A stretch of DNA of 64,000 bases from an uncultured Gammaproteobacteria bacterium (GTDB lineage: Bacteria; Pseudomonadota; Gammaproteobacteria; Eutrophobiales; Eutrophobiaceae). Position 1 is the stretch's first letter. Every line of letters begins with the position of its first letter. The notes beneath the pieces were generated by a model. The model searched no databases, had not been told where the DNA came from, and saw only the letters and a list, made by a program, of their open reading frames with translations. Below, piece after piece: positions 44,310 to 62,312 of the stretch. The translations under genes and the position numbers were made by a program. The DNA is taken from contig CAXBLT010000014.1 in NCBI GenBank assembly GCA_963976795.1, positions 2,314-66,313 on the forward strand. The letters are read 5' to 3'.

Positions 44310-45662
44310 TTATTTAATCCATTCCAGCCCAATGATGACATCCTCTGCAGATTGAAATCGTTCGTCTGGTTCTTTCGCTAATAAACCATCTATCAATGGT
44401 TGGTATTTAGCCAAATGGGTAGGAAGATGTGGGATTGGCGCGTTTATGTGCATTGATATTAGTTGTGCTACCGATTTAGCGATGTAGGGGCGTTCGTTTG
44501 TTAGCATCTGGAAAATCATAATACCAAGACTGTATAGATCACTGCGATGATCAAAAGGCATGCCGGCACCTTGTTCTGGACTTATATAGTAGGGTGTGCC
44601 AACGATATGATTGTTGACCGTTATATCCTCCACGTCTCCCGTTAAATTTTTTGCAGCGCCAAAATCGGTGATTGTTAATGTGTCATCGGCTCTAAATAAA
44701 ATATTACCGGGCTTTATATCTCGATGAACGATATTCAATTCATGTACGGCAACTAAGCCTAGGCACATTTCACGGATGTATTCGATTGCTTTCTCTAATT
44801 CAATACCATGCTTAAGTTTTTTAGTTAAGTCACCACCAGGAAAATGTTCCATTGCAATATAAGCAAAATCTGATGCAAATGCCCGCTCATAAATAGAGAC
44901 TACATTTGGATGGTCAAGACACGATATTAACGTGTACTCTTGCATAAATCGTTTTAATGCAATGGGGTCTTCGTGGCCTTCGGTAAACATAACTTTCAAG
45001 ACAACTTCATTGTTTTCTTCTATTGGCTTGGCTAAAAATACGGTTGACATACCTCCGCGACCAATCTCTTTGAGTAGCTGATAGCCAGGAACGACAAGCC
45101 CAAATTTTTCTAATTGCTTATTCGTAGTAGAAAAATCAGCCGTCTCCCCAGAGATGTCAAAGAAATCATCCAGGTTAACATCATCTTCATCTTGAAAAAG
45201 TAAATCAGGTAATGGTGGTGTTCCAACAATTGTTGCCTCATCGACTTCTACATTACTTGTGATTAAGGTTTGTTGTTTATCTGCAAGAGAAAAAATATCA
45301 TCTAGTGTTGTTTTAATTGTGTATTCAGATATATCTTCTTTATCTATAAAATCTATTGCACCAGCTTTTAGTACGCGGACAGCAACCTTTGTATTACCTT
45401 CAGCTGTTAACATCAGAACAGGTGGCATACCAACAATTGAATTGAAATGCACCATCCAACCCAGACCATTTTCTCTTCCAAGCCCCAGGTCATAATCAAG
45501 AATGACTAGGTCAATTTCATCCCAAACAAAATCATCACTAGGTAATCTTTGACTAACAGGGTCATATTCTACGACCTCTACATCACTATATGTATTTTTT
45601 ATATAGTGAATCAATAATTTGCGGTAATCCGCCGAGTCATCAATGAGTAGTATGCGTGACAA
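44310..45662 (-). CDS. response-regulator receiver domain fused to Hanks-type Ser/Thr protein kinase (last gene of chemosensory operon)
   Basis: 450 aa; REC residues DD..D(LVILDYDLG)..T..K present; kinase GxGxxG (GRGGMSTV), HRDIKPGN, DFG, SPE motifs. Confidence 0.85.
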   Translation of the reverse strand: MSRILLIDDSADYRKLLIHYIKNTYSDVEVVEYDPVSQRLPSDDFVWDEIDLVILDYDLGLGRENGLGWMVHFNSIVGMPPVLMLTAEGNTKVAVRVLKAGAIDFIDKEDISEYTIKTTLDDIFSLADKQQTLITSNVEVDEATIVGTPPLPDLLFQDEDDVNLDDFFDISGETADFSTTNKQLEKFGLVVPGYQLLKEIGRGGMSTVFLAKPIEENNEVVLKVMFTEGHEDPIALKRFMQEYTLISCLDHPNVVSIYERAFASDFAYIAMEHFPGGDLTKKLKHGIELEKAIEYIREMCLGLVAVHELNIVHRDIKPGNILFRADDTLTITDFGAAKNLTGDVEDITVNNHIVGTPYYISPEQGAGMPFDHRSDLYSLGIMIFQMLTNERPYIAKSVAQLISMHINAPIPHLPTHLAKYQPLIDGLLAKEPDERFQSAEDVIIGLEWIK

Positions 45663-45744
45663 TAGAAGCTATCCTGGTGAGCTTATTAAATATCAGGTTA
45701 GTAAATTAATGAAATAAATAATATTATTCAACAAGATGTAGTTT

Positions 45745-48700
45745 TCAAACTAGTAAGCTGTGAACATGATCTAATAAATCATCTTCTGAAAAAGGTTTGG
45801 TCACATATATATTGACCCCAGCCGCTTCGGCTTGTTTTCTGTGTTTGTCCGTTGAGCGTGATGTTATCATAATTACAGGGATGTCTTTTGTGTTTTCAAG
45901 ACCGCGTACATGTGAGGTCAATTCCATACCATTCATTCTTGGCATTTCCATATCAACCAGCATGATATTTGGTTTTTTATTCTCGATGATTCCAACAGCT
46001 TCCAGACCATCTTTGGCTGTCCTGACATCAAAGCCTGCATCCTGGATAACCTGGGTGAGAGCACGTCTGGCACTGAGAGAATCATCGACTACTAGGGCTA
46101 CAGGCAGTGCACGATGAATATTTGAGTGGGTCAGTTCATCAGGTTTGTCTAAAATCGTAACTGGTGCTCGAATTAATTCAGGTAAATCAATAACGGGTAT
46201 GACACTACCATCGCCCAGGATAGTCGCTCCAAGCATGCCCTTGATGTTATTAATATATTTCCCCATGGACTTAATAAAAAGGTCTCGTGTATCAACTACT
46301 TCTTGTATATAAATAACATGATTCAATTCTTCATCACGGATAAGCAAGGCCGGTCTTGTCTCTCTCGTATCACCTCTTCTATCTTCGGGTAAATTTAATA
46401 AGGATTCTAGGGATTGCATTTTAAGTTTTTCGCCATCAACTTCACACATAAGGCCATGGTCAGTCTCAATAATTTGTGAATCACTTGGGTGAAGGATTTT
46501 TTCTATACCGTGATTAGATACGGCAATTATATTATTTAAGTGGCGTAATAATAAAGCGTGAGATGACATTAACGTTAATGGCATTCTTAATTCAATTAAA
46601 CACCCCTTGTTCTCTTTAGACTCGATATGAACGCTACCTTTCATTGCTAGAAGTTCAGTGTGAACGATGTCCATACCAACGCCACGGCCAGAAGTTTGTG
46701 TTGCTTTCTCTCGTGTTGAAAAACCAGGGTTTAAAATAAGTCTGTTAATCTTGTTCTCAGAAAATTGTTCATCTGGCCTTAATAAACCTCGTTTGATAGC
46801 TGTATCGATTATATCTTTTCTATCAAGACCTGAGCCATCATCCTGACATTTAACAAGAATTTGAGTGCCTTCTCTGACAAAAGTAAGTTGCAGCTTTCCT
46901 TCCGGGTCTTTTTTCAGGTGTATTCGTTGTTCACGATTTTCAATACCATGGTCTATGGCGTTTCTAAGTATATGCATCAACGGGTCTATCAACTTATTTA
47001 AAATGTCGCTATCTATAAGCGTGTCAGAGCCAATAATTTCGAGAGAGACTTCTTTCTTTGTGCTTCTACATGTTTGTCGCACAATACGCTGTAACCTAGG
47101 AGATATAGTCTTAATAGCTACCATGCGGGTGCGCATAACAATTCCCTGGATTTCATTATGTAGACGTAACTTATCGACTAATAATTCATCCAGTTCACGT
47201 AAGTCATTTGCAACCTCTTGATTTAATTCATATGAGTCATCTGCAGCTTCGACAATGCGATGAGTAACGGTATGTAGTTCGTTATATTCTTCAAGCTCTA
47301 ATGAGTCGAAAACTGTATCTTGGTCAGCACTCTGTTGATTGTTTTGAACAGCGCTTTTTACATCTACTTGAACCTCCAAGTCTGAAGCTAGATTTTTCAC
47401 GCTATTTTGGTGCTCAACAAGTCGTTGTGACTGCATTGTTGATAGTCTTACCCTTTCTTGAAGTTGAGATGTGACAATCATGGTTTCACCAAGAAGTCTT
47501 AATATTTCATCGATTAGATTAGCCGGAACGCGTAATATAGCACTGGCATCACTATCATCGTTTTCTTTTTCAATATCCTCTTCTTTGGGTTTTGCAGTGA
47601 CCGGTTCAATAGTTTCATTTTCTTCAGATTTAAGACAATCTACGCCTTCCTTTTCTAAGCGTATTGCCCAGTCCAATATACTTTGCAACACGTTTTGACT
47701 GTTTGAGGGGGCTGTTCCACGTTCTAACAAAGCTTCACTCATTTCTTCTAAACAATCTGCTGCATCCATGAAGCTAGCTGCTAAGGCAGGAGAGGGGAGG
47801 TGATTTAGATCATTGAGTGAACTCATTATGTCTTCAAGCTGATGGGTTAAGATGGCAATACCTTTTACACCAACGGTATTTGCCGCACCTTTTACTGTAT
47901 GAGCAATGCGTTGTGCTTTATGTACTTCGCTGATGTCACCACTGCCATCAATCAGGGCTTGAATTGCAGCTGAAAAACCCTCTGTCTGTCCGGGTAGTTC
48001 CTGCAATAAACCATCGAGTAATTCTTGGTTTATATCTTCCGGAAGCTCAATAGAAACATCTTCACTTTTTGCTTCTGTCTGTCTTGCTTCTTTATGAATA
48101 TCAACCTCTGAGACATAGACCGCTTTTAAGAGATTAATCAGTGCCGGTGCAACACCGGTCATTAAATTATTCGGTAATTCTTTATCTTTTACGATATCTA
48201 CAAGTGCACTGCTAAAAACATTATCTCCTGGGTTTTGTAGATAAGATAAAACACTTTGAGGCCATAAAGTAAGAAGTGACAATTGATGTTCTGTAAATTT
48301 AGCTTCGTTATTTGAAAAATAATTAATATTATTCGTGAATACAGAAGCTATTTGGTACAAGCCATCCATCTCGGCTGCCTGGCATGCACTACCAAAACGC
48401 TCGACATGAAGAGCATACTGGGATAGAGAATCAACGATTACTTCAGCCTCGGTATCTTCATTTTTTATTAATTCAATATGAGATAAGATTTCATCGCGGA
48501 TTATAGTTGCTTCTTCTTGTAGCATTTTAACAAGATCTTTACTAATGCCATGTGGTGCAGCGAGGATATCTTTTGTTTCAATCACATCATCTAATATTTC
48601 ATTGAATTCTTCCTGTAATCTTTCGTTCGTCGAGACCGTTGTTGAATTCGTAGGGGCAGCTATATTAGCTGCTTCCGGTTCAATGACCTCATTTGCTTCA

Positions 48701-49881
48701 GGAGGAGCACCCATCATCTCTTGGATAATATCTAGGTCAGCTTGTGCCATAGGGTTTGGCCATTGCTCATCTGATAGATACTCAAGAATGTTTTGAATCG
48801 CATCAGTTGAGTTTGGATTTACTAAATAATTTTTAACAAGTGACAGCCATTGCTTAATATGTTGAATATATTGTTCTAAAGATGATTTGCTATCATCTGC
48901 TATGTCAGATAAAAATTCTTTTATAAGAAAACAGACGTCCTGAAACCCAAGTAGATCCAATTCTCCTGCGGCTAGTCCGATTTCTTCAGAATTGTTTGCA
49001 ACATTGAGAATGCTGTCTTTATTATGTGGCTCTACCTCTGCGACAGAACGCTGGAGTTTATTAAATACATTAACCAGTGCGTCTGGTATGTTTGGTGAAC
49101 TATCCTTAGTTTGGACGCCAAACATCTCTAATAAAACATTAGCATCGGTTTCAGCGAGGGGTGTGGGCCATTCATCTTGTTTTAAGTTAGCAACTAATGC
49201 GGAAGCAGCGGCAGAATTGTTTGTGCTTGACAAAAATAACTCAGCTTGATTGAGCCATTCTAACACCATGTTCTTCTGTGTGTCGTTTATTCCATTATTA
49301 TCTTGTTCAAGATCGGTTATATTCTCTTGAAATAACAAACAAACATCTAGAAACCCCATTAGGTTTTCTTCGTTAAGAGAAAGTAATAACTCTTCTAACT
49401 TTTCATTTAAAAGGCCTAATTCAAGGGTTTTGTTATTTCTTATGTTGGTGATGATTTCTGAGAATAAAGTTTGAAATTTATTAGCTTCTTTACTAAGCAT
49501 GTCGTTTAAAACATTTAGATCTGCTTCTTCTAGTGATGTACTTAAATCTGAATTATTAAAGAAATTAGTGAGAGCATCTGCGGTGGAATGTGTGCTGTTT
49601 TTTAAGTGATTAGAAGCAAGGATCGGCCATCGTTTTAATAACTCAAGTTGAGTGCTGCTCAAGGTATTATTGGTTTCAATAATATCGGAATATGTTTCCT
49701 GAACTAAAAAACAAATATCCTGGAAGCCTAATCGTTTATTTTCACCTGCTGCAATTCCCAAGGCTTCGATGTTATTTAGCGCATATTGTAAAGATGCCGT
49801 ATCAATATTATCTTGGCTGGGAATAGATTGGGAAACCTGAGCAATGAATAGCTCTAGATTAGAGTTGATTTTAGAACTCAT
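45745..49881 (-). CDS. ChpA/PilL-like hybrid CheA histidine kinase: four FimL-like N-terminal repeats + Hpt + HATPase + CheW + C-terminal REC
   Basis: 1378 aa; Hpt HTVKGAANTVGV; repeated ~110-aa modules each ending W(P).P.....D...L.EM; C-terminal receiver VALVVDDS...MLVDMEMP. Confidence 0.85.
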   Translation of the reverse strand: MSSKINSNLELFIAQVSQSIPSQDNIDTASLQYALNNIEALGIAAGENKRLGFQDICFLVQETYSDIIETNNTLSSTQLELLKRWPILASNHLKNSTHSTADALTNFFNNSDLSTSLEEADLNVLNDMLSKEANKFQTLFSEIITNIRNNKTLELGLLNEKLEELLLSLNEENLMGFLDVCLLFQENITDLEQDNNGINDTQKNMVLEWLNQAELFLSSTNNSAAASALVANLKQDEWPTPLAETDANVLLEMFGVQTKDSSPNIPDALVNVFNKLQRSVAEVEPHNKDSILNVANNSEEIGLAAGELDLLGFQDVCFLIKEFLSDIADDSKSSLEQYIQHIKQWLSLVKNYLVNPNSTDAIQNILEYLSDEQWPNPMAQADLDIIQEMMGAPPEANEVIEPEAANIAAPTNSTTVSTNERLQEEFNEILDDVIETKDILAAPHGISKDLVKMLQEEATIIRDEILSHIELIKNEDTEAEVIVDSLSQYALHVERFGSACQAAEMDGLYQIASVFTNNINYFSNNEAKFTEHQLSLLTLWPQSVLSYLQNPGDNVFSSALVDIVKDKELPNNLMTGVAPALINLLKAVYVSEVDIHKEARQTEAKSEDVSIELPEDINQELLDGLLQELPGQTEGFSAAIQALIDGSGDISEVHKAQRIAHTVKGAANTVGVKGIAILTHQLEDIMSSLNDLNHLPSPALAASFMDAADCLEEMSEALLERGTAPSNSQNVLQSILDWAIRLEKEGVDCLKSEENETIEPVTAKPKEEDIEKENDDSDASAILRVPANLIDEILRLLGETMIVTSQLQERVRLSTMQSQRLVEHQNSVKNLASDLEVQVDVKSAVQNNQQSADQDTVFDSLELEEYNELHTVTHRIVEAADDSYELNQEVANDLRELDELLVDKLRLHNEIQGIVMRTRMVAIKTISPRLQRIVRQTCRSTKKEVSLEIIGSDTLIDSDILNKLIDPLMHILRNAIDHGIENREQRIHLKKDPEGKLQLTFVREGTQILVKCQDDGSGLDRKDIIDTAIKRGLLRPDEQFSENKINRLILNPGFSTREKATQTSGRGVGMDIVHTELLAMKGSVHIESKENKGCLIELRMPLTLMSSHALLLRHLNNIIAVSNHGIEKILHPSDSQIIETDHGLMCEVDGEKLKMQSLESLLNLPEDRRGDTRETRPALLIRDEELNHVIYIQEVVDTRDLFIKSMGKYINNIKGMLGATILGDGSVIPVIDLPELIRAPVTILDKPDELTHSNIHRALPVALVVDDSLSARRALTQVIQDAGFDVRTAKDGLEAVGIIENKKPNIMLVDMEMPRMNGMELTSHVRGLENTKDIPVIMITSRSTDKHRKQAEAAGVNIYVTKPFSEDDLLDHVHSLLV

Positions 49882-49935
49882 CAGAATGCACTCATACAGT
49901 GATGATAATAGTATTGAATATTAGTATATCGATTA

Positions 49936-51324
49936 TTAAATATTCATCTCATCATCAGCTAGTCTGAATACGCCGACCGATGCCACTAATTGCATGGCTT
50001 GCTCCACTAGTTCATCAGTATGTACAGTTTGATCTTGCAAATGGGCTCCTGTTTTACGAACACTATCTCGAATAACGTCTGTGCGCTCTCTCAGTTGATT
50101 ACTGGTTTTGGCTTGTGCAACAGCATGTTCTGCAATTTTTTGTACCATACTTACTAATTCAGCTGTTGTAGATTGCGTTTCTTTCATTTGTGAACCAGCA
50201 GTTTCTGCTAACTGACTACCACCGACAACCTGGGTGGTAAGCTCGTTCATTGTGTTGACTGTATTTACAGTTTCAATCTGAATATTATTCACTAACGTGC
50301 CAATTTGCGAAGTTGCTTCTCTGGCATTTTCAGCAAGGCGTTGCACTTCGTCAGCAACGACAGCAAAGCCGCGGCCGGCTTCACCGGCAGATGCTGCGTG
50401 CATGCTGGCATTAAGAGCAAGAATATGTGTTCTTTCAGAGATATTATTAATTAAGTTTACAGCAGTACTAATTTCTTGAGATCGTTCACCAAGGCGTTTA
50501 ATACGTTTTTCAGTTTCATGGATGGTGTCACGTATATTATTAATGCTATCTACAGTATCACCCACTGTACTCATAGCAGTTATGGTGGTTTTTATTGCAT
50601 CTTCGGCAGCAATATTAGATTGCTCTGCTAAACGGGCGATTCTGGACATGGTTCCTGTAGCCGATTTCAATTCTATTGCTGCTTTTTCAACTTCATCCTG
50701 TTCCTTATTAGCGAGTAACAATACATTATCAGATTGAGATTTAACCAGGTTTGACGTTTCTGCAACATCACCAGAGATTCTTGTTACTTCGTTTAATACG
50801 CTAGTTGTTTCAGAAGTCATTAAATTTAATGCATCTGCTAATGGACCAGTAATGTCTTCATTTACTTTTGCCTTTATGCCAAGGTTTTTCTGAGCCATTT
50901 GTGCAACTGTTTCTAATAGCGCCACAATGGAGTCATTTAACTGTTCATTTTCATCTTCTATGCTCATCAAAACAGAAACGCGTTCATTTAACATAGTATC
51001 AATTGATGTGCTGATATTCTCAAATTCATCTCCGCTTTTAACACCGACGCGTGCTTCTAGATCGCCTTCTGATATTTTCTCCATAATGTTCATTAATCTT
51101 TCGATAGGCTTGTAGAGAGAATTAACGAAATAAACGGTGCCGATAAAAGTAATAGTCAACATTACAAAAACACTTTTAACCCCATTATTTAAAATTTGTG
51201 TGATAGCTTCACTATGCTCTGCACTTGATATTGCGAAATACAAACTAAGGAGAATGCTCAAGTAGGCAATATTGATGAATAAGACCCCTAAAAATAATTT
51301 GTTTTTGATTTGCATCTTCATCAT
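49936..51324 (-). CDS. methyl-accepting chemotaxis protein, PilJ-position, essentially no periplasmic domain
   Basis: 462 aa; two TM helices ~20 aa apart, HAMP, MCP signalling hairpin (ALNASMHAASAGEAGRGFAVVADEVQRLAE). Confidence 0.85.
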   Translation of the reverse strand: MMKMQIKNKLFLGVLFINIAYLSILLSLYFAISSAEHSEAITQILNNGVKSVFVMLTITFIGTVYFVNSLYKPIERLMNIMEKISEGDLEARVGVKSGDEFENISTSIDTMLNERVSVLMSIEDENEQLNDSIVALLETVAQMAQKNLGIKAKVNEDITGPLADALNLMTSETTSVLNEVTRISGDVAETSNLVKSQSDNVLLLANKEQDEVEKAAIELKSATGTMSRIARLAEQSNIAAEDAIKTTITAMSTVGDTVDSINNIRDTIHETEKRIKRLGERSQEISTAVNLINNISERTHILALNASMHAASAGEAGRGFAVVADEVQRLAENAREATSQIGTLVNNIQIETVNTVNTMNELTTQVVGGSQLAETAGSQMKETQSTTAELVSMVQKIAEHAVAQAKTSNQLRERTDVIRDSVRKTGAHLQDQTVHTDELVEQAMQLVASVGVFRLADDEMNI

Positions 51325-51381
51325 GATTGTTGCTCTCAGTTGTTGATTTAAGTTACTTAGTTCTTATTGCGAATCAGTTTT

Positions 51382-51921
51382 CTAATCGGAATAATCCTTG
51401 GTCATGTTTTTAATAAATGCGTCGTAATCAATTTCAATCCATATCTCTTGTTCTAGAAAAAATGTTTCTGATATATAATCGGTAAGAATTTCAGGGGTGT
51501 CATTAGGTGTTGATGTTTTAATGAATTTCTCATTATCGATATCAATTGAGTTTGGTAGGTCATCTATATATGTGGCAAAGGCACTTTCGCCTCTATCGAT
51601 AATTAGTAATGTATCATCTTTTTTATCATCGCCAGTTTGTTCAAGTATTTTTTTTAAATCAAATACTGGTACAAGTATACCTCGTAGATTTATCAATCCT
51701 TGTATCCATGGTGGCGTGTTTGGCATGGAATAAATTATTGGTCTTTTAACCACTTCACAGATGGTGAATTTGTTGATGAGTAAATTTATTTCTCCTAGAC
51801 GAAAGCCGAATCGTAGATTTAAGGATTGACCGTCATCAACAAACCCTTGGTATGGATCAAAGTGATCTGCCTCAGACGAAATATTAACGAGTTCAGGTTC
51901 TGTCGTTTGATCGGGTGTCAA
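51382..51921 (-). CDS. CheW-like coupling protein (PilI-like)
   Basis: 179 aa CheW domain. Confidence 0.8.
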   Translation of the reverse strand: MTPDQTTEPELVNISSEADHFDPYQGFVDDGQSLNLRFGFRLGEINLLINKFTICEVVKRPIIYSMPNTPPWIQGLINLRGILVPVFDLKKILEQTGDDKKDDTLLIIDRGESAFATYIDDLPNSIDIDNEKFIKTSTPNDTPEILTDYISETFFLEQEIWIEIDYDAFIKNMTKDYSD

Positions 51922-51973
51922 TTTATATGCCTATATCAAAATCTAATCAATTTGTTAGTTAGTTGCAGCTTGA

Positions 51974-52339
51974 TTATTCATATGCCTTCAGTTGATCCAG
52001 GATTTGTTCCTTCGTGTAGGGTTTTGATACAAGGTCTTTGCCTCCTTGCATTTTGGCCCAGACGCGATCTGCTTTTTGGCGTTTGCTACTCACAAAAACA
52101 ATAGGAATTGTTTTAGTCGCACTATCATTTGTTAATGTTCTCGTTGCTTCGTAACCATCCATTTGATCCATGACGATGTCCATAAAGATAATGTCGGGTT
52201 TTTCACTTTTTGCTTTTTCAATAGCATCACTGCCATTTGATGCGGTAATGACTTCTTTTTCTGTATCACTAATGATCTTTTCAAGGTTTGATAAATCTGT
52301 TGATGAATCATCAACAATCAGAACTTTACTTATCGGCAT
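51974..52339 (-). CDS. pilH: single-domain response regulator PilH
   Basis: 121 aa; C-terminal DRVWAKMQGGKDLVSKP closely parallels P. aeruginosa PilH DKVWGKRQGARDYLTKP. Confidence 0.75.
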   Translation of the reverse strand: MPISKVLIVDDSSTDLSNLEKIISDTEKEVITASNGSDAIEKAKSEKPDIIFMDIVMDQMDGYEATRTLTNDSATKTIPIVFVSSKRQKADRVWAKMQGGKDLVSKPYTKEQILDQLKAYE

Positions 52340-52404
52340 TATTTCCTCCGGGCTAAAATGTAACTAGTAAATCTTATTAAGTTTAAATCTTATGGATAGA
52401 TAAA

Positions 52405-53205
52405 TTAAGAGACAGCACTGGCTCTTATCGGCTCATTCAAATACTGAGAAACAACTTCTTTGAATATTGTTTGACCAACGGGTTTAATTAAGTAGGTATC
52501 ACAACCGGCCAGTTTCCCTTTTATTTTATCAGCGGGTGATGAGTTTCCTGTAAGCATAATAATTGGAGTGTTTTTTGCCTTGCCTTGTTTAATGACTTTA
52601 CAAATCTCATAACCATCCATGCCAGGTAAAATAACATCGAGAAAAATTATTTGATATTCATTTGTATTAATTAATTCAAATGCTTCTTCACCAGATTCAG
52701 CAAAATCAACACGCTCCGTAAAAGGTTTTAGAGCCTGATCCATTTGTATTCTTACAGGTAAACTGTCATCAATAACAAGTGCTATAGAATGTTTTACGTC
52801 ATTGTTTTTTGATATTGGCGTCGCAGTTTGTTCTAAAATTGCAACTTCTTCTTTGACTGTAAACTCTTTAGCTGTGACCTGATCTAAAATGCTTATTGCT
52901 CTGGATGCAATTAAAGGACGTCTTACCTGATAATGTTCTGTCTTGAACTCGCGATCTTTAGAAACTAATACAGAAGGAGGATCTTTTATATCTTTGGCTT
53001 CAAGTGTATTTCGATATTTACGCCATTGAATCAAAGATAAAGGTTCATCAGCATTCACCATTAAAATTTGTGGCGAATCATTAATGTCCGTCGCCGAGTA
53101 AGCTGTATGTCTTGACTGCGAATGTTGAAAAGCGGCGTTTAAACGTTTTTCTTCAATAGATGGAATACCAATTAAGGCTACCGTTATATTGTTATCTGCA
53201 TTCAC
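52405..53205 (-). CDS. pilG: PilG-like response regulator with ~140-aa N-terminal degenerate (pseudo-)receiver extension
   Basis: C-terminal REC with PilG-like DKIKGKLAGCDTYLIKP; N-terminal half has receiver-like strand pattern but lacks the phospho-Asp. Confidence 0.6.
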   Translation of the reverse strand: MNADNNITVALIGIPSIEEKRLNAAFQHSQSRHTAYSATDINDSPQILMVNADEPLSLIQWRKYRNTLEAKDIKDPPSVLVSKDREFKTEHYQVRRPLIASRAISILDQVTAKEFTVKEEVAILEQTATPISKNNDVKHSIALVIDDSLPVRIQMDQALKPFTERVDFAESGEEAFELINTNEYQIIFLDVILPGMDGYEICKVIKQGKAKNTPIIMLTGNSSPADKIKGKLAGCDTYLIKPVGQTIFKEVVSQYLNEPIRASAVS

Positions 53206-54244: not shown

Positions 54245-55798
54245 CTATGCGGCTATTAACTGATCAAGTTCAGTTCTGTGTTTGTTTTGATGTTTCACAA
54301 AATATTGCCGAAGTATTTTTGCCCCAGCAGTTCGTGATGCATCGGATGGATTATTTTCGATTGAAATTCGAATGCTTTGCAGCATCATTTTGAGTGCTAC
54401 TATGTCCGTATTTATGACCAACTCACCATTAATTAATCGTTGCCAACTTGGATGGGTCTCTGGCGGGATAGTAATTTGGTTGTTATCATTGTTGTCAGTA
54501 GGTAAGACTTGGGGTGCTATCCCATTTAACTGAAGTATTTCATTTTGTGATGAAGCTTGATGTTTAAGAAAATATTGGCGTAATATTTTTATTCCCGCCA
54601 TGCGATTAGTTTCAGACGTGTTTTTTTCAACAGATTGTCGTACTCTTTCCAACATCATCTGTAAACCAACTGTATTTGTCTGAATTTTTAACTCACCAAT
54701 AACCAGTTGTTGCCAACATGAGGCATTCTCTGACGGTAATATGACATCTGTTTTTGCAGAAGTAATGGGTATCGATACTCGAATTCCCATTTGTTGTGAT
54801 TCTGAACTTAGCCGCGCCTTATGTTTTATAAAAAATTGCCTAAGTATTTTTGCACCTGCTTGCCGAGATGACTCCGATGGGTTTCTTTCCACCGATTGGC
54901 GTACACGCTCCATCATCATTTGCAATGCAACATTTGATGTTTGAATTTGTAGTTCAGCATTAATGATTTTTTGCCAAACGGCATCATTCACACCTGGAAA
55001 AACTGAAGACTCAGATGCAAGTATGCCTATTTGTTCTTGATTTGATGCTTGAGTTGAAATGCCAGAAATTATGGCAATGTCGGCTTTGTGTTTATCTTGA
55101 TTTTTGATGAAGTATTGGCGCAATAATTTTGCAGATTTAATGCGTGAAACTTCAGAAGGGTTCTTTGCGATATCTTGACGAATACGTTGCAGCAGCATTT
55201 GTAGACCAACAGCTTTTGTCTTAATAATTTGATCGCCATTGATGATTCGTTGCCAATTATCATGTGTTTCTGGCGGAATATTAGTGTGTTCAATTAATTC
55301 AAAAGATTTCGTGTCAAAATAATCCGTAGGGCTTGACGTAGACGTGTTGGTTGCATTTGCAACATTTGATAATGCATCGGCAAGATTATCAGCTCCTGCT
55401 CCGGTACGTTCACTTACTTCACGAATCTCAGCCGCAGTAACACCAGAAATTTTCGCTGCGGCTTGGTTAGATTTTGTGTTGTTAAGGATATCGATTAAAA
55501 ATGCTTCCATCTCGTTGGTCAGTTGGGAACCTGAGGGAGCCCAACTCTTATTACTCTCTACCGTGCTAGGTGCAGGTACGTGTAAATACGTACGCATTCC
55601 GGATATTGGTAAATGGCGCAATTTAATGGTTTGAATATCGTCATTAGATTTTGAATTGCCGAAAAAGGATTTCTTCTTCTTTGAACCGTGAGCAATAGCG
55701 ATATCTATACGATTTGAAGGTCGATCCACCTCAACTGTATTTATATGCCATTCATCATCTAAATTTAATAATAGTGTAAGTATTTCTGTATCTTGCAT
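54245..55798 (-). CDS. tandem-repeat protein: N-terminal ISL3-transposase-N-like (cysteine-less) domain + four ~90-aa repeats; first gene of chemosensory operon
   Basis: 517 aa; repeats start at W182, W275, W362, W452 with consensus WQ.IINGEL.I.T..VALQMM.ERVRQSVE.NPSE.SR.AGAKILRQYFIKH; N-terminus VEVDR...IKLRHLPISGMRTYLHV mimics zf-ISL3 pattern without Cys; no DDE domain. Confidence 0.7.
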   Translation of the reverse strand: MQDTEILTLLLNLDDEWHINTVEVDRPSNRIDIAIAHGSKKKKSFFGNSKSNDDIQTIKLRHLPISGMRTYLHVPAPSTVESNKSWAPSGSQLTNEMEAFLIDILNNTKSNQAAAKISGVTAAEIREVSERTGAGADNLADALSNVANATNTSTSSPTDYFDTKSFELIEHTNIPPETHDNWQRIINGDQIIKTKAVGLQMLLQRIRQDIAKNPSEVSRIKSAKLLRQYFIKNQDKHKADIAIISGISTQASNQEQIGILASESSVFPGVNDAVWQKIINAELQIQTSNVALQMMMERVRQSVERNPSESSRQAGAKILRQFFIKHKARLSSESQQMGIRVSIPITSAKTDVILPSENASCWQQLVIGELKIQTNTVGLQMMLERVRQSVEKNTSETNRMAGIKILRQYFLKHQASSQNEILQLNGIAPQVLPTDNNDNNQITIPPETHPSWQRLINGELVINTDIVALKMMLQSIRISIENNPSDASRTAGAKILRQYFVKHQNKHRTELDQLIAA

Positions 55799-56681
55799 CT
55801 ATGCACTCCTTAGGCATATATACATCTACTCACACACTTCCGATACGTCCTTAATTTACGATAGTTTACCTGTAGATTAATTGTGAAAAATCTTATGGAA
55901 CTTGTCGCTTCCCCTGCCTTATAAAACTCGTACTAAATACCTAAACAACTATTTTCATTAAAGATATAAAGCGAAGTGTGCTCTTAAAATTTATTATTAT
56001 ATAATTCTCTGTTACGGACTTATTTGTACCATTAATTAATTTCAAAGTCACGTTTGTTGAAAATAATCATTTTCTTTCAATGGCTTAGATAAGTTTTTGA
56101 AAGGTAATTAGTATTTTGAGTATTTCTTCTAAGTACAAGTAAATCAAATAGATATTAGTGTTAACTAATGTGTTTAGTAATCCATAGTGTTTGTAGTTAG
56201 CGACACATTAATTTCTTTAATAGGGTGAGATGTGTAGTCGAATATATACCCTTAATTAGGTAGTGATTTATAAATGATGGGGCTTTTTTTAGATTACTAC
56301 AACACAGGCTCATCAAAAGAAGGAATCATATCTATGATAGAGCAACTTGAAGACAGAACTTTTCATCAATAAACAAGAGGCTTGGCAGTATTGCTCAGCA
56401 GATTTAGTAATCTGATGAATATATAATTGTTTAGTTCGATAATGATCTTGTCTCTGGAATGAGCACATATAAACAGAATGAAGATACAAGTTTCTGAACA
56501 TCCTTCTTAAAAAATATTAATTGGGAAGAAACTCCTGGCACCACCATTGAATTACACCATAGATAATAAACATTCGGTTTCAGAGTCAGGTTTTAAATCT
56601 TAAACTTGAAATACGGTGGTTATAGCTGAACTTAAATCAGCGACATCAGCTTTATGAGTGTTGTGATTAAATATTGTTAGT

Positions 56682-57680
56682 CTATTTAAATATGGATTTA
56701 AAAAAATCAGTTAAGCGCTTCTCACTCCAATACTTTGGATGAAATGGTGTGTCGCCATAAACAAACCCAACATGTCCACCTCGTTCCGTTAGTTCTAATG
56801 TGACGCTCTCTGATAAGTCATCTTCGTTTGGGAGTGCGCTCTGGTTCATGAAGGGGTCGTCTTTGCTGTGGAGTATAAGCGTAGGAGTGGTGATGTGTTT
56901 TATGAATTGTTTGCAACTGGATTTGCTGTAGTAGTCATCGACACTATCAAAATTATGTAAGGGGGCGGTGACGTTGTGGTCGAATGAGTAGAAGTTTGTC
57001 CATTCGTTTAGTCTGCTTAGATCAATGGGTGCCAGTTTGTTTTTGAATTTATCGCGTGTTTTTATAATCAGGCTGTTGATTAAATAACTTTGGTATATTC
57101 TGGCGAAACCTGTTTCCAATTCTTTAGCGCAAATGCCGAGATCGAAAGGAATTGAGATTGCCATTGCTGCGGTTAAAGGACATTTTTCGCCGAGTTCGCC
57201 CATATATTTAATCAAGGCATTGCCACCAAGAGAGATACCTACGGCTGTTATTTTTCTATTGGGGTAACGTTTAATTAATTCGTTGATAAAGAAACTGATG
57301 TCACCAGTGTCACCCGAATGATAGCTGCGATTCAATCGATTGTGCCGACCGCTGCAACCACGAAAATGCATGAGTACGCCTTGCCAGCCATTACCGATGA
57401 CAGCGTTTAAAATCAATTTCACATAATGTGAGTCTACCGAGCCTTCGAGGCCATGAAATAGGGCGACTATTGGGCCAGTTTCTTTTTTCTCAGTCCATGC
57501 AAGGTCAACGAAATCGCCATCAGCTAATTCAAACTCTTCACGAAGTAGCTTCGGAGGAGAGGGACTTTTAAATAGCCGTGGATACAGTGTTTGTAAGTGA
57601 CGATTGGAGCACCACCAAGCAGGTTTGAATTCACTGTTGATAATGTTGATTGCTGGTATCCCTTGATAGGTGTTACTTAT
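56682..57680 (-). CDS. YheT-like alpha/beta hydrolase; intact frame but no canonical start codon (ATA overlapping ygfZ stop)
   Basis: in-frame conserved N-terminus (NRHLQTLYPRLF...DGDFVDLAW...FHGLEGS) upstream of GTG at 57422 called by ORF track; catalytic GISLGGN, SKDDPF, GGHVGF present; no ATG/GTG/TTG between 57423 and in-frame stop at 57691-57693. Confidence 0.6.
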   Translation of the reverse strand: MSNTYQGIPAINIINSEFKPAWWCSNRHLQTLYPRLFKSPSPPKLLREEFELADGDFVDLAWTEKKETGPIVALFHGLEGSVDSHYVKLILNAVIGNGWQGVLMHFRGCSGRHNRLNRSYHSGDTGDISFFINELIKRYPNRKITAVGISLGGNALIKYMGELGEKCPLTAAMAISIPFDLGICAKELETGFARIYQSYLINSLIIKTRDKFKNKLAPIDLSRLNEWTNFYSFDHNVTAPLHNFDSVDDYYSKSSCKQFIKHITTPTLILHSKDDPFMNQSALPNEDDLSESVTLELTERGGHVGFVYGDTPFHPKYWSEKRLTDFFKSIFK

Positions 57681-58690
57681 GGTTCGATATCAGAAGGTAG
57701 TTCAATAATTGAGATTGCTTTATTTTCAATTAATAGCTTGTCGTTTAGTTTATCTAGATCGATTACTGCTAGCGCATAACTCAATCCATCAGGATGAGTT
57801 GCTGCATTTATGATAGTGCCTGCCTTACTATTGGACTGTTCAGAAATGAGATGTTTATCAATAGATAATGGTTGTGCGGATTGTATCAAGCTAAGACGTT
57901 TTTTTACTTCTCCGCGATAATGTAAGCGCGCGATGACTTCCTGTCCCGGATAGCATCCTTTTTGATAGCTTAAGCCTTTGAGAGCATCAAGGTTTAGCAT
58001 CTGTGGTAAGTACTGTTCTTGAGTTAATGATGTTACCCACGGCAGGCCAGCGAGGATGTCTAATAGATTCCAGATATGAATCCCTGTCATTGAGACATTA
58101 TCTTTAAAATGCGATATGTTTTTTATCAAGGCCTCAATATTGCCTGTTATAAGGTGGCGATTAGAGCCATCGGGATGACAAATAATAATTAACCCATCAA
58201 CAGCATTTACTTCTCCAGGGTTTGACGGGAGGTTACCGTTTAATGAGGCAAGATTGCTGCAATTTGGCAGTACATTGGCCAGACCAAGTAAAGGTGATGA
58301 GTCTGAGATATCATTGATCGTCACATCAGAACGCATGACAAACATCTCTAGTCTTTTTTGCACAAACTCTTTTAAATCTGTTTTGAATATCAACAGATAG
58401 GCAATTCCAGTGTTGATGACTAAAAAGTTGCTAATAACTTGCCCTTTAGGATTGCACCAAGCGGAGATTTGCGCAGCAGGTTCTTCAATAAGATTTAAAT
58501 CGTTGATGAATTGACCATGTAAAAATTCGTGCCGATCATTACCAACAACGGCTAGCATTGAAAACCCGGAGAGAGGCGTGATTAAGGGTGTCTCTGAAAC
58601 ATTGATGCCTGAGTCATTGAAGTCAATGACATCATTGTTCAGTATTGTTGCGCCCTTTTGTTCAAGAAAGGCTTGCCATGTCTCTTGCAT
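57677..58690 (-). CDS. ygfZ: folate-binding tRNA-modification protein YgfZ (GcvT-like)
   Basis: 337 aa, aminomethyltransferase-like fold, neighbour of sdhE as in E. coli. Confidence 0.8.
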   Translation of the reverse strand: MQETWQAFLEQKGATILNNDVIDFNDSGINVSETPLITPLSGFSMLAVVGNDRHEFLHGQFINDLNLIEEPAAQISAWCNPKGQVISNFLVINTGIAYLLIFKTDLKEFVQKRLEMFVMRSDVTINDISDSSPLLGLANVLPNCSNLASLNGNLPSNPGEVNAVDGLIIICHPDGSNRHLITGNIEALIKNISHFKDNVSMTGIHIWNLLDILAGLPWVTSLTQEQYLPQMLNLDALKGLSYQKGCYPGQEVIARLHYRGEVKKRLSLIQSAQPLSIDKHLISEQSNSKAGTIINAATHPDGLSYALAVIDLDKLNDKLLIENKAISIIELPSDIEP

Positions 58691-58699
58691 CGTTTTAAT

Positions 58700-58948
58700 T
58701 CAATCTGTTTGTCTGGATTGTCGAATTAAGGTAATGATGTTTTTTATACCGTCATTTTCTGGAATATCTTTCCCCATTATCCAGTTAAGGATATCGAGAT
58801 CAGCTTCGTCTAATAGTTGTGAAAATGAATTTTTATCAGTGTCACTTAGCGTGTTATACGACTGATTTAAAAAGTCTTGTAGCACTATATCCATTTCTCG
58901 AATACCGCGACGGCAACGCCAGAGAAGCCGAGAATGTTCTCCTTCCAT
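58700..58948 (-). CDS. sdhE: FAD assembly factor SdhE
   Basis: 82 aa, RGxxE motif (CRRGIREMD), abuts sdhB. Confidence 0.85.
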   Translation of the reverse strand: MEGEHSRLLWRCRRGIREMDIVLQDFLNQSYNTLSDTDKNSFSQLLDEADLDILNWIMGKDIPENDGIKNIITLIRQSRQTD

Positions 58949-59731
58949 TTAAAGGGTGCGAGACAGCATCAATTTTTTGATTTCAGCGATTGCTTTCGCT
59001 GGGTTTAATCCCTTTGGACAAGTGTTCGTGCAATTCATGATCGTATGACAACGGTATAGGCGGAACGGATCCTCCAGATCATCTAGACGTTCACCGGTAA
59101 ATTCATCACGGCTGTCCGCAATCCAGCGATAGGCTTGAAGTAAAATAGCAGGGCCCAGATAACGGTCACTATTCCACCAGTAACTTGGGCAACTGGTTGA
59201 GCAACAGGCACACAAGATACATTCATATAATCCATCGAGTTCAGCGCGTTCTTCTTTTGATTGCAATGTTTCTGCGTCTGGTGGGGGAGCAGTTTGAGTC
59301 TGCATCCAGGGTTTAATTGATGTGTATTGCGCATAAAAGTGTGTCAAATCCGGGACCAAATCTTTTACTACAGGCATGTGTGGTAATGGGTAGATTGGGA
59401 TGTCACCGTTGTATTCATTAATCGCTTTGGTGCAGGCCAAGGTATTTGTGCCACCAATATTCATGGCACACGAGCCACAAATACCTTCGCGACAGGAGCG
59501 ACGGAAGGTTAATGTAGAGTCAATTTCATTTTTAATATAGATGATGGCATCTAATATCATCGGACCACAGTTATCGAGATTAATTTCATAGCTATCTAAT
59601 CTTGGATTATCGCCGGAGTCAGGTTCCCACCTGTAAATACGAAAGGTTTTTTTGTTGCTTGCGCCTTTTGCAGCGGCGAAGGTCTTGCCCGTTTTAATTT
59701 TAGAATTTTTAGGTAATGTAAATTCAGCCAT
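58949..59731 (-). CDS. sdhB: succinate dehydrogenase iron-sulfur subunit
   Basis: 260 aa, 2Fe-2S/4Fe-4S/3Fe-4S cysteine clusters. Confidence 0.95.
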
Positions 59732-59757
59732 AGTTATTCTCTGTTATTAATACTCGA

Positions 59758-61545
59758 TTAGTAGACACGTTTCTTTGGTGGGAATACATCAACTTCATCT
59801 GTTAGCGTAAACATATGCACAGGTCGATATTCGAAACTGACTTCGCCTTTGTCACTAAACTTAGCCAGAGTATGTTTCATCCAGTTTTCATCATCACGAT
59901 CCGGAAAATCTTCTCGGGCGTGACCGCCACGACTTTCCTCACGGTTGTATGCACCATGAATACTAACCATGGCACATCGTAGAAGATTATCGAGTTCTAA
60001 CGTCTCTACCAGATCGGTATTCCAGACCATGCCCTTATCTTCAACCTTCACTTGTGAGAATGAATCCCAAATTTTTGCCATCTCATCAATACCATGTTTC
60101 ATGGATTCACCAGTACGGAATACTGCGGCATCGTTTTGCATGGTACGTTGCATGTTACTTCGTATTTCAGCAGTCGGTATTGACCCTTTGTTATGACGTA
60201 ATCTATCTAGGCGTTCCAGGCCTTCATCACCGGCGTCAGGCATCGATTTGTGTGCTTGATTAGGTTTTATGTTTTCTGCGCAGTAATTAGCAGCTGAGCG
60301 TCCGAAAACAATTAAATCGAGCAATGAATTTGAACCCAGACGATTGGCGCCGTGAACTGATACACAAGCCGCTTCACCAATGGCCATCAGACCTTCGACA
60401 ATTGTATCAGGGTCGCCATCTTTCATGGTTACTACCTGTCCATGATAATTGGTTTGTATGCCACCCATGTTGTAATGGACGGTTGGAATGACTGGTATTG
60501 GTTCTTTAGTGACATCAACACCAGCAAAGATCTCCGCCGATTCCGCTATACCCGGCAAACGTTCATTAATCACTTCTGGTCCCAGATGTTCCAGATGTAA
60601 GTGGATATGATCTTTATCTTTACCAACACCGCGGCCTTCGCGTATTTCCATGGTCATGGAACGACTAACTACATCTCGTGATGCCAAGTCTTTTGCAGAA
60701 GGGGCGTAACGTTCCATAAAGCGCTCACCTTCAGAGTTGGTGAGATAGCCTCCTTCCCCGCGAACACCTTCGGTAATCAAACAACCTGAACCGTAAATGC
60801 CTGTTGGGTGAAATTGAATAAACTCCATGTCTTGCAATGGCAGACCTGCACGTAGAACCATGCCATTGCCATCACCGGTACAGGTGTGAGCAGAGGTGGC
60901 CGAGAAATAAGAACGACCGTAACCGCCAGTAGCCAATACAACTTGATGTGCTCGAAAACGATGAATCTTTCCATCTTCCAGATTCCAGGCCATCACACCA
61001 CGACAGACGCCGTCGACATCCATTATTAAATCAAAAGCAAAGTATTCGATAAAAAACTCTGCTTCGTGCTTTAACGATTGTTGATAAAGAGTATGCAAGA
61101 TGGCATGTCCGGTTCTGTCAGCTGCGGCACAGGTACGCTGAGCTGTTCCTTCTCCATAATTAGTGGTCATGCCACCAAAAGGCCGTTGGTATATTTTCCC
61201 TTCTTCCGTCCGGGAGAAAGGCACACCTTGATGTTCTAGTTCAATAACAGCCGGTACAGCCTCGCGACACATGTATTCTATAGCATCCTGATCGCCAAGC
61301 CAGTCAGAACCTTTTACGGTGTCATACATATGCCAACGCCAGTCATCTTTTCCCATATTACCAAGTGAAGCACTCATGCCACCTTGTGCCGCAACAGTAT
61401 GGCTACGGGTTGGAAATACTTTGGTGATGCACGCGGTTTTCAATCCTTTTGCGGCCATGCCAAATGTCGCTCTAAGGCCAGCACCACCAGCGCCAACGAC
61501 GACGATGTCGTACTTGTGTTCAATAATTTCGTATGATTTTGTCAT
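59758..61545 (-). CDS. sdhA: succinate dehydrogenase flavoprotein subunit
   Basis: 595 aa, FAD-binding GAGGAG, covalent-FAD His region. Confidence 0.97.
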
Positions 61546-61551
61546 TATAAT

Positions 61552-61932
61552 TTACAGCCCTAAATAAATCTTTAACACAGCAATTGCGGCGCTAAGCCCA
61601 GCCAGCAATGCAAGAAACTTGACAAGGATCAGACAAGCAATTTTTTGCCATTCCGATTCGACGTAATCTTCTATTACCACTTGCAGCCCTAATGCCGCAT
61701 GATAATAAAGTGAGATTATGAAAAGTAGCATGAGAACGGCATTTAATGGATTTGCTAGCCAAGTGACCGCTGTAGCGTAATCAGCACCTGTTACCGATAC
61801 CAGAGAATAGATAAACCACAAACTAAGAGGGACTAGTGCTAGCGCTGTTAGACGTTGTGACCACCAGTGATGAACACCTTCTTTAGCTGAACCTAGACCG
61901 CGAACACGTGCTAGAGGGCGTTGAAGACTCAT
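61552..61932 (-). CDS. sdhD: succinate dehydrogenase hydrophobic anchor subunit
   Basis: 126 aa, 3 TM, position. Confidence 0.85.
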   Translation of the reverse strand: MSLQRPLARVRGLGSAKEGVHHWWSQRLTALALVPLSLWFIYSLVSVTGADYATAVTWLANPLNAVLMLLFIISLYYHAALGLQVVIEDYVESEWQKIACLILVKFLALLAGLSAAIAVLKIYLGL

Positions 61933-62312
61933 ATCATGCCTCCAAGTATTAGCGTGATTATTGACAGGATGATGCTGAATGCAATAGTGATATATCCAGT
62001 CATATAAACTGTCGATATTTCCAGGCCTTTGCCAGCATCCCAGAATAAATGCCGGATGCCATTTGCGAAATGAAAGTAAAATGAAAATACAAATGCAGCA
62101 AGACTGATTTTTCCATACCAGGTCGACGCATGTATTTGTAAATTGTTGAATGCCTCTTCGCCACTAGCAAGCCCGACTAACCAACAGGTTAATAACAAAG
62201 CCCCGAGGCTAAGGAAGACACCAGTACCTCTGTGTGTAATCGATAAAACCGATGTTAATTGAGGTTTATAGACTTGCAAATGAGGTGATAACGGTCGTTT
62301 CACCGATTCCAT
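61929..62312 (-). CDS. sdhC: succinate dehydrogenase cytochrome b556 subunit
   Basis: 127 aa, 3 TM, heme-ligand His, first gene of sdhCDAB. Confidence 0.88.
   Translation of the reverse strand: MESVKRPLSPHLQVYKPQLTSVLSITHRGTGVFLSLGALLLTCWLVGLASGEEAFNNLQIHASTWYGKISLAAFVFSFYFHFANGIRHLFWDAGKGLEISTVYMTGYITIAFSIILSIITLILGGMI

Follow-up and report, generated by a model that had tools for sequence, protein, structure and literature searches.

Chemosensory operons of the Pil-Chp type, with the gene order pilG-pilH-pilI-pilJ-(pilK)-chpA, encode receiver (REC) and CheY proteins, a CheW, a methyl-accepting chemotaxis protein (MCP), and a large Hpt/kinase/CheW/REC hybrid. We analyzed a gene cluster of this kind in a 64,000-nucleotide stretch of DNA from an uncultured gammaproteobacterium of the Eutrophobiaceae (assembly GCA_963976795.1, contig CAXBLT010000014.1, positions 2,314 to 66,313 of the forward strand), which we refer to as the window. 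The cluster has the same set of components but lacks CheR and CheB, carries an extra REC-Ser/Thr kinase gene at its end, and begins with two extra genes. The second of these encodes a DUF6976 protein. The first, an open reading frame (ORF) on the minus strand (54245..55798), encodes the 517-residue protein that is the main subject of this work; it starts with ATG, and AAGGAG lies 7 nt 5' of the start. We know of no Pil-Chp component that resembles this protein.

In DDE transposases in general, the N-terminal part of the protein recognizes the ends of the element. The first ~140 residues of the window protein are homologous to and collinear with those of ISL3-family transposases (PF14690 + PF13542 + PF01610; NF033550), and about half of its family keeps the four zinc-ribbon cysteines. 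Unlike these transposases, the window protein has neither a DDE domain nor terminal inverted repeats, and its gene is single copy and keeps its place in a conserved gene order. Its clade has lost the zinc ligands by deletion, and across the family an unrelated helical domain, in one to six copies, takes the place of the transposase C-terminus. Eukaryotes offer well-documented examples of transcription factors that arose from transposase DNA-binding domains. Like them, the window protein keeps a DNA-recognition module without the catalytic domain, fused to a new, putatively partner-binding region. It differs from them in being bacterial and ISL3-derived, and in that DNA binding is a property that we propose here.

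FIST proteins are cytoplasmic sensors that can work with a co-encoded partner; NosP, for instance, senses nitric oxide and acts through its histidine kinase (see also PMC12570481). DUF6976 would likewise be a stand-alone, FIST-like cytoplasmic protein encoded beside, and presumably acting through, a separate partner. In contrast to NosP, it scores below the FIST thresholds, and its partner is not a kinase but a small helical, putative docking domain that occurs alone or on a transposase-derived head.

We find that the constant element of these loci is the pair formed by a single repeat unit of the window protein and DUF6976; the transposase-derived head, the extra units, and the chemosensory (che) genes are add-ons. 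As far as literature searches show, both the unit-plus-DUF6976 module and its ISL3-headed variants are undescribed; searches on DUF6976, the ISL3 domain names, and ISL3 domestication returned nothing relevant.

The N-Terminal Domain Resembles the DNA-Recognition Region of ISL3 Transposases

Judged by profile homology, the N-terminal 148 residues of the window protein descend from the DNA-recognition region of an ISL3-family transposase. Searched alone, the window protein matches NCBIfam transpos_ISL3 (NF033550; E 4.3e-4, residues 55-134 against profile positions 26-113) and Pfam Zn_ribbon_ISL3 (PF14690; E 0.0028), both below the curated cut-offs. Among 45 relatives, 20 match Zn_ribbon_ISL3 (best E 1.3e-7) and 20 match HTH_Tnp_ISL3 (PF13542; best E 2.1e-8). 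A 132-position profile of the family's N-terminal region, run against 1.84 billion representative proteins, retrieved 799 at E <= 1e-3. The matches that come next after the family itself are proteins of ~405-420 residues, in which profile positions 1-131 align with residues 1-141 at E 5e-15 to 1e-9. We scanned four of the ~410-residue matches (E 5e-15 to 4e-12); each has a DDE_Tnp_ISL3 domain (E about 1e-70) and is thus a genuine ISL3 transposase. The motifs common to the family and to ISL3 N-termini are LLGL..PW.V..V..D....R.DI, CPxC, (W)RHL....RTYLH, CxC/W, and SRFT..ME, followed by a helix-turn-helix (HTH).

We modeled the whole protein with AlphaFold2, using a 109-sequence alignment as input. 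Residues 1-148 are predicted to form four strands followed by four helices, with a predicted local distance difference test score (pLDDT) mostly >90, and the model keeps the three-helix HTH. We also searched the PDB by sequence profile, with the N-terminal domain, the repeat unit, DUF6976, and an ISL3 transposase as queries. The single match was a designed HTH repeat protein (8vd6), confined to the HTH segment (profile positions 95-129); these sequence searches brought up no structure of an ISL3 transposase.

An initial sequence-only reading of the window had likened the N-terminus to ISL3 transposases, a likeness that it staked on profile similarity, and significant profile similarity was indeed found. 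That reading also described the domain as cysteine-less, with the zinc-ligand cysteines replaced and no DDE catalytic domain present. Residues 1-170 contain no cysteine, C361 being the only one in the protein, and PF01610 matches neither the window protein nor any of the 45 relatives. The ligands are absent as described; they have not been replaced, since both cysteine pairs lie in loops that are deleted here (13 and 7 residues). In about half of the family, a Cys4 site (C54/C57/C99/C101, CPxC...CxC) is found at the zinc-ribbon positions, and the wider family shows further, repeated losses of this site.

Four Copies of a New Small Helical Domain

The C-terminal part of the protein holds four repeats of ~90 residues, as the sequence-only reading had it. 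They are marked by conserved tryptophans at residues 182, 275, 362, and 452, which are spaced 93, 87, and 90 residues apart; pairwise identity is 38-53%, and 18 columns are invariant. A tblastn search with repeat 4 recovers the other three at E 2e-21 to 2e-25. Tandem Repeats Finder detects no DNA-level tandem repeat in the gene, indicating that the duplication is ancient rather than recent. The units are position-specific: first units most closely resemble the first units of other species, and last units resemble last units. Among 109 full-length relatives, four units are the most frequent number (n = 60), followed by five (n = 27), three (n = 15), two (n = 4), and six (n = 3).

The structured part of each repeat is a unit of 76 residues, and the linkers between units span 12-23 residues. 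In the AlphaFold2 model (mean pLDDT 84.8, predicted template modeling score (pTM) 0.36), five domains exceed a pLDDT of 90 and the segments that join them fall below 50. The four-helix units lie at about 180-245, 273-336, 360-424, and 450-516, and unit 4 predicted alone reaches a pLDDT of 92.5. A solenoid, which the sequence-only reading had suggested looking for with AlphaFold, is not what the model contains: four separate four-helix units sit on disordered linkers like beads on a string. The linker scores and low pTM of this prediction also speak against a continuous superhelix of the TPR or HEAT type. The units are basic (isoelectric point (pI) 9-10.4). Three of the four linkers, which are predicted to be disordered, consist of 29-39% Ser/Thr, vs 16% protein-wide.

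The repeat unit is a new small helical domain, covered by no Pfam model. Neither Pfam nor PDB sequence profile searches yielded a family or solved fold that matches it, and it corresponds to no characterized family. DUF4783 (PF16022) was considered and rejected: with 18.6 bits the window protein stays under the cut-off of 24.1, no single stretch is significant, and the scores in relatives are sums over repeats that cover only positions ~18-55 of the 102 in the profile. HEAT and further Pfam matches among the relatives' repeats are sporadic and weak. The matches to DUF4783, HEAT, DUF7077, and other Pfam families on the repeats were all rejected; they add up weak per-repeat scores, and single units give no match. 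A word-indexed protein search with the 76-residue unit profile returned three fragments only. Taken together, the ISL3 homology, the absence of a DDE domain, and the unmatched repeats support the sequence-only reading's proposal of a domesticated ISL3 module joined to a novel repeat.

Homologues of the 517-residue protein with full-length ORFs form 116 clusters, none of them named; the database names are "hypothetical" or "DUF6976 family protein". Three relatives of the window protein (P0015, P0029, and P0068) bear the JGI names "phage anti-repressor protein" or "alkylated DNA nucleotide flippase Atl1". No domain match supports either name, so these are probably automatic misannotations. Further architectures include an 864-residue protein (P0188) with an ISL3-like head, ~300 residues of unknown sequence, and four units, and a 676-residue protein (P0133) with an ISL3-like head and five units.

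The Repeat Unit Is Paired with DUF6976

DUF6976 directly follows the relatives of the 517-residue gene in all 24 genome loci, and the same six signaling genes come after DUF6976 wherever the contig is long enough. Methylohalomonas lacus HMT 1, the only cultured organism among these 24 loci, carries the che-linked version. Proteins of ~240-264 residues, made up of the ISL3-like domain and a single C-terminal unit, also emerged from the search with the N-terminal profile. In four of four such cases looked up, DUF6976 lies directly 3' of the single-unit gene, and no che genes occur in the contigs long enough to show them.

We therefore reversed the census and started from DUF6976. A metagenome scan yielded at least 554 loci. 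We retained 80 of them and typed their upstream genes with local hidden Markov models. A unit-encoding gene lies immediately upstream of DUF6976 in 69 of the 75 metagenomic loci with usable upstream sequence. These genes take three forms: the ISL3-like domain with two to six units (13 loci; che genes follow wherever the downstream sequence suffices), the ISL3-like domain with one unit (21 loci), and a lone unit, with no ISL3-like domain detected (35 loci, in five of which the ORF is cut by the contig end). The complete head-less ORFs encode stand-alone proteins of 73-77 residues, which have no Pfam match and whose start codon lies two residues before the conserved proline of the unit. An hhalign comparison establishes their homology to the repeat unit (probability 99.3%, E 1.1e-20). 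At a further locus (L115:4317-5954), the upstream ORF of 546 residues has a weakly unit-like C-terminus.

The two partners are also found as one polypeptide. In-frame fusions of a unit to the N-terminus of DUF6976 occur at L097:314-1549 and L109:83-1414 and, weakly, at L094:1053-2537 (E 0.027); the otherwise invariant tryptophan of the unit is leucine in the L109 and L094 fusions. The sources of the pair include Gammaproteobacteria (multi-unit), Betaproteobacteria (one-unit), Ignavibacteria (stand-alone), and also Desulfobacterota. The unit, which the sequence-only reading had proposed to seek in other genomes, is thus found widely and nearly always adjoins DUF6976.

Two exceptions to the usual combinations are informative. 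The cultured Desulfogranum japonicum has the head, two units, and DUF6976 with no che genes, and one metagenomic locus (L067) has a head-less single unit and DUF6976 with che genes. These cases indicate that the add-ons, namely the head, the extra units, and the che genes, can be separated from one another. The constant partner of the repeats is DUF6976 and not the chemosensory proteins, and the pair is mostly found outside che operons.

DUF6976 Is a Putative FIST-like Protein

DUF6976 comprises at least 4,610 protein clusters, whose members are almost always single-domain proteins of ~325-350 residues. FIST_C is weakly matched by 6 of 15 DUF6976 proteins (best E 0.0054, below the FIST thresholds), and the window copy gives no match. 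The C-terminal GEI...LNQT motif of DUF6976 resembles the end of FIST_C. No relative of DUF6976 was found in the PDB by sequence. The invariant residues include H137, D139, and D140, together with C289 and C291 of an SCNC motif, suggesting a cofactor, metal, or redox site. We regard a FIST-like sensor as a lead rather than a result.

The Gene Is Maintained by Selection

Full-length orthologues are found in fixed synteny in the 24 genome loci, at 33-80% identity (best segment). Nonsynonymous divergence (dN) amounts to 0.12-0.32 across the domains and to 0.5-0.84 across the linkers; synonymous divergence (dS) is saturated (>2). The gene is single copy within the window, and no terminal inverted repeats flank it, the only inverted repeats found being short ones with arms inside coding regions. 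The lack of insertion-sequence features, the single copy, the fixed synteny, and the low domain dN against saturated dS together indicate that the gene is maintained by selection. We found no earlier description in the literature of a bacterial transposase DNA-binding module retained for a host function with its catalytic part discarded; the window protein is a clear and deeply conserved case.

Proposed Function and Alternatives

Three observations favor DNA binding by the head: its homology to the transposase region that recognizes element ends, the three-helix HTH kept in the model, and the gene layout around some of its relatives. In at least nine loci (L058, L064, L065, L070, L075, L084, L090, L113, and L114), the gene for a head plus one unit is divergent to a TonB-dependent receptor operon, which encodes (e.g., L090:1-6969) a metallo-beta-lactamase-fold protein, a TENA/PQQC-like protein, the TonB-dependent receptor, and a DUF302 protein. 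This layout is a classic arrangement of a regulator and its target and hints at regulation of an uptake system.

On balance, we lean toward a multivalent adaptor. Each 76-residue unit would dock one molecule of the putatively FIST-like DUF6976 encoded 12 nt downstream, so that in the window protein a single head, transposase-derived and probably DNA-binding, could carry as many as four DUF6976 sensors. The one-unit relatives (head, unit, and DUF6976) would then act as a split one-component regulator, in which the sensor controls a DNA-binding partner. In the window, the pair opens a Pil-Chp-like operon in which the MCP lacks an evident ligand-binding domain; there the pair may either feed a cytoplasmic signal into the array pathway or convert the state of the pathway into gene regulation. 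The analysis shows the homology of the head, its lack of a DDE domain and of cysteines, the domain architecture, and the genetic coupling and occasional fusion of the unit with DUF6976; we infer that the two proteins bind, in what ratio they do so, that the head contacts DNA, and which way the signal runs.

Several observations weigh against this proposal. The window clade has no zinc ribbon, its N-terminal domain is mildly acidic (net charge -4, pI 5.5), and its third HTH helix is Glu-rich; DNA binding may have been lost in this clade. The charge itself is indecisive, because the mean net charge of genuine ISL3 N-termini is close to that of the family. We found no conserved operator upstream of the operon, and 9-mers shared there are not above shuffled controls. 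The nine TonB-receptor loci possibly come from closely related organisms and would then not be independent. Unit count and che linkage are not tightly tied, as Desulfogranum japonicum and L067 illustrate. Adjacency and fusion imply a functional link between the unit and DUF6976, not necessarily a 1:1 complex, and the link of DUF6976 to FIST is weak, with its best E value at 0.0054.

Alternatively, the head may no longer bind DNA and may have been reused for protein interaction or oligomerization; the protein would then be a pure scaffold that clusters DUF6976 on the MCP/ChpA array and has no role in transcription. The loss of zinc ligands in the window clade and, repeatedly, in the wider family, the acidic N-terminal domain, the lack of a conserved operator, and an operon shared with array components all fit such a scaffold, and units on flexible linkers suit clustering. 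We nevertheless consider it unlikely: the N-terminal domain is under purifying selection with an HTH still recognized by ISL3 profiles, ISL3 transposase N-termini have the same average net charge, and relatives with the same head are encoded divergently from a TonB-receptor operon, where array genes are absent from the neighborhood. It is also conceivable, at a lower probability, that the units bind something else, such as phosphorylated receiver domains, ChpA, nucleic acid, or each other, and that DUF6976 is a pathway neighbor. The basic units would suit acidic REC surfaces or nucleic acid as well, and four receiver domains are encoded in the operon. However, the unit and DUF6976 occur together mostly where no REC or che genes are nearby, in-frame fusions of the two exist, and the stand-alone form is one unit with nothing else attached.

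The linkers suggest yet another role, in which the protein would be the output substrate of the pathway: the REC-Ser/Thr kinase, activated by ChpA, would phosphorylate the linkers and so alter DUF6976 docking or DNA binding. Their Ser/Thr content and predicted disorder favor this, as does the presence of the REC-Hanks kinase gene at the end of the operon in every locus long enough. This role is entirely conjectural. The linkers diverge rapidly, and they show no conserved phospho-site motif; we hold the role to be very improbable as the main explanation, and it is compatible with the multivalent adaptor rather than exclusive of it. Finally, the N-terminal ISL3 similarity and the loss of the DDE domain and cysteines could recall a decaying, functionless insertion-sequence remnant. 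Conservation and synteny effectively refute this: full-length orthologues persist in the 24 genome loci, the domains are under purifying selection, and the gene is single copy without inverted repeats.

Building on the multivalent adaptor, a broader picture can be put forward tentatively, as possible rather than probable. The unit and DUF6976 would constitute a widespread, unrecognized two-protein sensory module, one branch of which, fused to a domesticated ISL3 domain, would form a new class of bacterial transcription factor. In the window lineage, the units would have been multiplied two- to sixfold and wired to a Pil-Chp-like pathway, such that the array and gene expression share one FIST-like cytoplasmic sensor. 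The two-protein unit-DUF6976 module may itself deserve to count as new. For DUF6976, a large family without an assigned function, the results name a concrete and testable partner, and unusual accessory proteins are pinpointed at the head of a Pil-Chp-like chemosensory operon. With these proteins identified beside an operon receptor that has no obvious sensing domain, the input or transcriptional output of orphan chemosensory systems becomes directly testable. Cultured carriers exist for both versions, Methylohalomonas lacus HMT 1 with che genes and Desulfogranum japonicum without.

Operon Context and Neighboring Genes

The sequence-only reading had correctly called the gene the first of a che operon. 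It heads eight co-directional genes and is preceded by ~880 nt of AT-rich, non-coding DNA (Table 1). The cluster is tightly spaced, with intergenic gaps of 12, 22, 65, 52, 57, 54, and 82 nt in transcription order, and its gene order is unchanged in all related genome loci of sufficient length. After DUF6976, the order REC-REC-CheW-MCP-hybrid CheA is that of Pil-Chp-type systems; a domain scan found no CheR or CheB domain among the eight genes.

Table 1. Features of the 517-residue protein and its operon in the window
Feature	Position	Strand	Remarks
Whole ORF	54245..55798	-	ISL3-like N-terminal domain and four helical repeat units; stop codon included in coordinates
N-terminal domain, aa 1-148	55355..55798	-	Homologous to N-terminal ~140 aa of ISL3 transposases; strand region with degenerate zinc ribbon followed by helix-turn-helix; cysteine-free
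Helix-turn-helix part, aa 91-135	55394..55528	-	Corresponds to HTH_Tnp_ISL3
Linker, aa 149-171, disordered, Ser/Thr-rich	55286..55354	-	pLDDT <50; Ser+Thr 0.39 vs 0.16 overall
Repeat unit 1, aa 172-247	55058..55285	-	Four-helix unit
Repeat unit 2, aa 265-339	54782..55006	-	Four-helix unit
Repeat unit 3, aa 352-427	54518..54745	-	Holds C361, sole cysteine of protein
Repeat unit 4, aa 442-517	54248..54475	-	C-terminal; best conserved position across family
DUF6976 protein, 334 aa	53228..54232	-	12 nt downstream of 517-residue gene; Pfam PF22396, E 1e-137
Six remaining operon genes after DUF6976	44310..53205	-	
REC protein, 266 aa, unassigned N-terminal extension	52405-53205	-	
CheY-like, 121 aa	51974-52339	-	
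CheW	51382-51921	-	
MCP with HAMP, 462 aa	49936-51324	-	
ChpA-like Hpt/kinase/CheW/REC hybrid, 1378 aa	45745-49881	-	
REC-Ser/Thr kinase	44310-45662	-	

Several of the downstream proteins have features of their own. Read by eye, the MCP sequence appears to contain two hydrophobic membrane helices with only ~20 residues between them, and the receptor therefore apparently lacks a periplasmic ligand-binding domain. The first receiver protein has an N-terminal extension of ~140 residues that matches neither Pfam nor NCBIfam; it is conserved in related loci as full-length orthologues at 57-83% identity. The fusion of a receiver domain to a Hanks-type Ser/Thr kinase, which ends the operon in every locus long enough, is an unusual ChpA-type output.

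Upstream of the operon, the only conserved block, found among close relatives, is the ~30 nt directly before the start codon (window 55799-55830, minus strand), and the remaining long leader is not conserved. In relatives (upstream ends of L003-L006 and L037) the block reads TACTGTGTATATGCTCTGAGGGGAAGCATA, part of which the window keeps. Its conservation may reflect a role in translation or regulation that goes beyond the ribosome-binding site. A GGCAC...GTGCC inverted repeat was considered as an operator and rejected; it is present in three relatives and absent from the window.

Of the same-strand neighbors further upstream (56682-62312, minus strand), the first two, which were checked against Pfam, read as an alpha/beta hydrolase and a GCV_T-fold (YgfZ-like) protein. 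Beyond them, the sequence reads as a small SdhE-like ORF and as a succinate dehydrogenase operon of four ORFs (260, 595, 126, and 127 residues).

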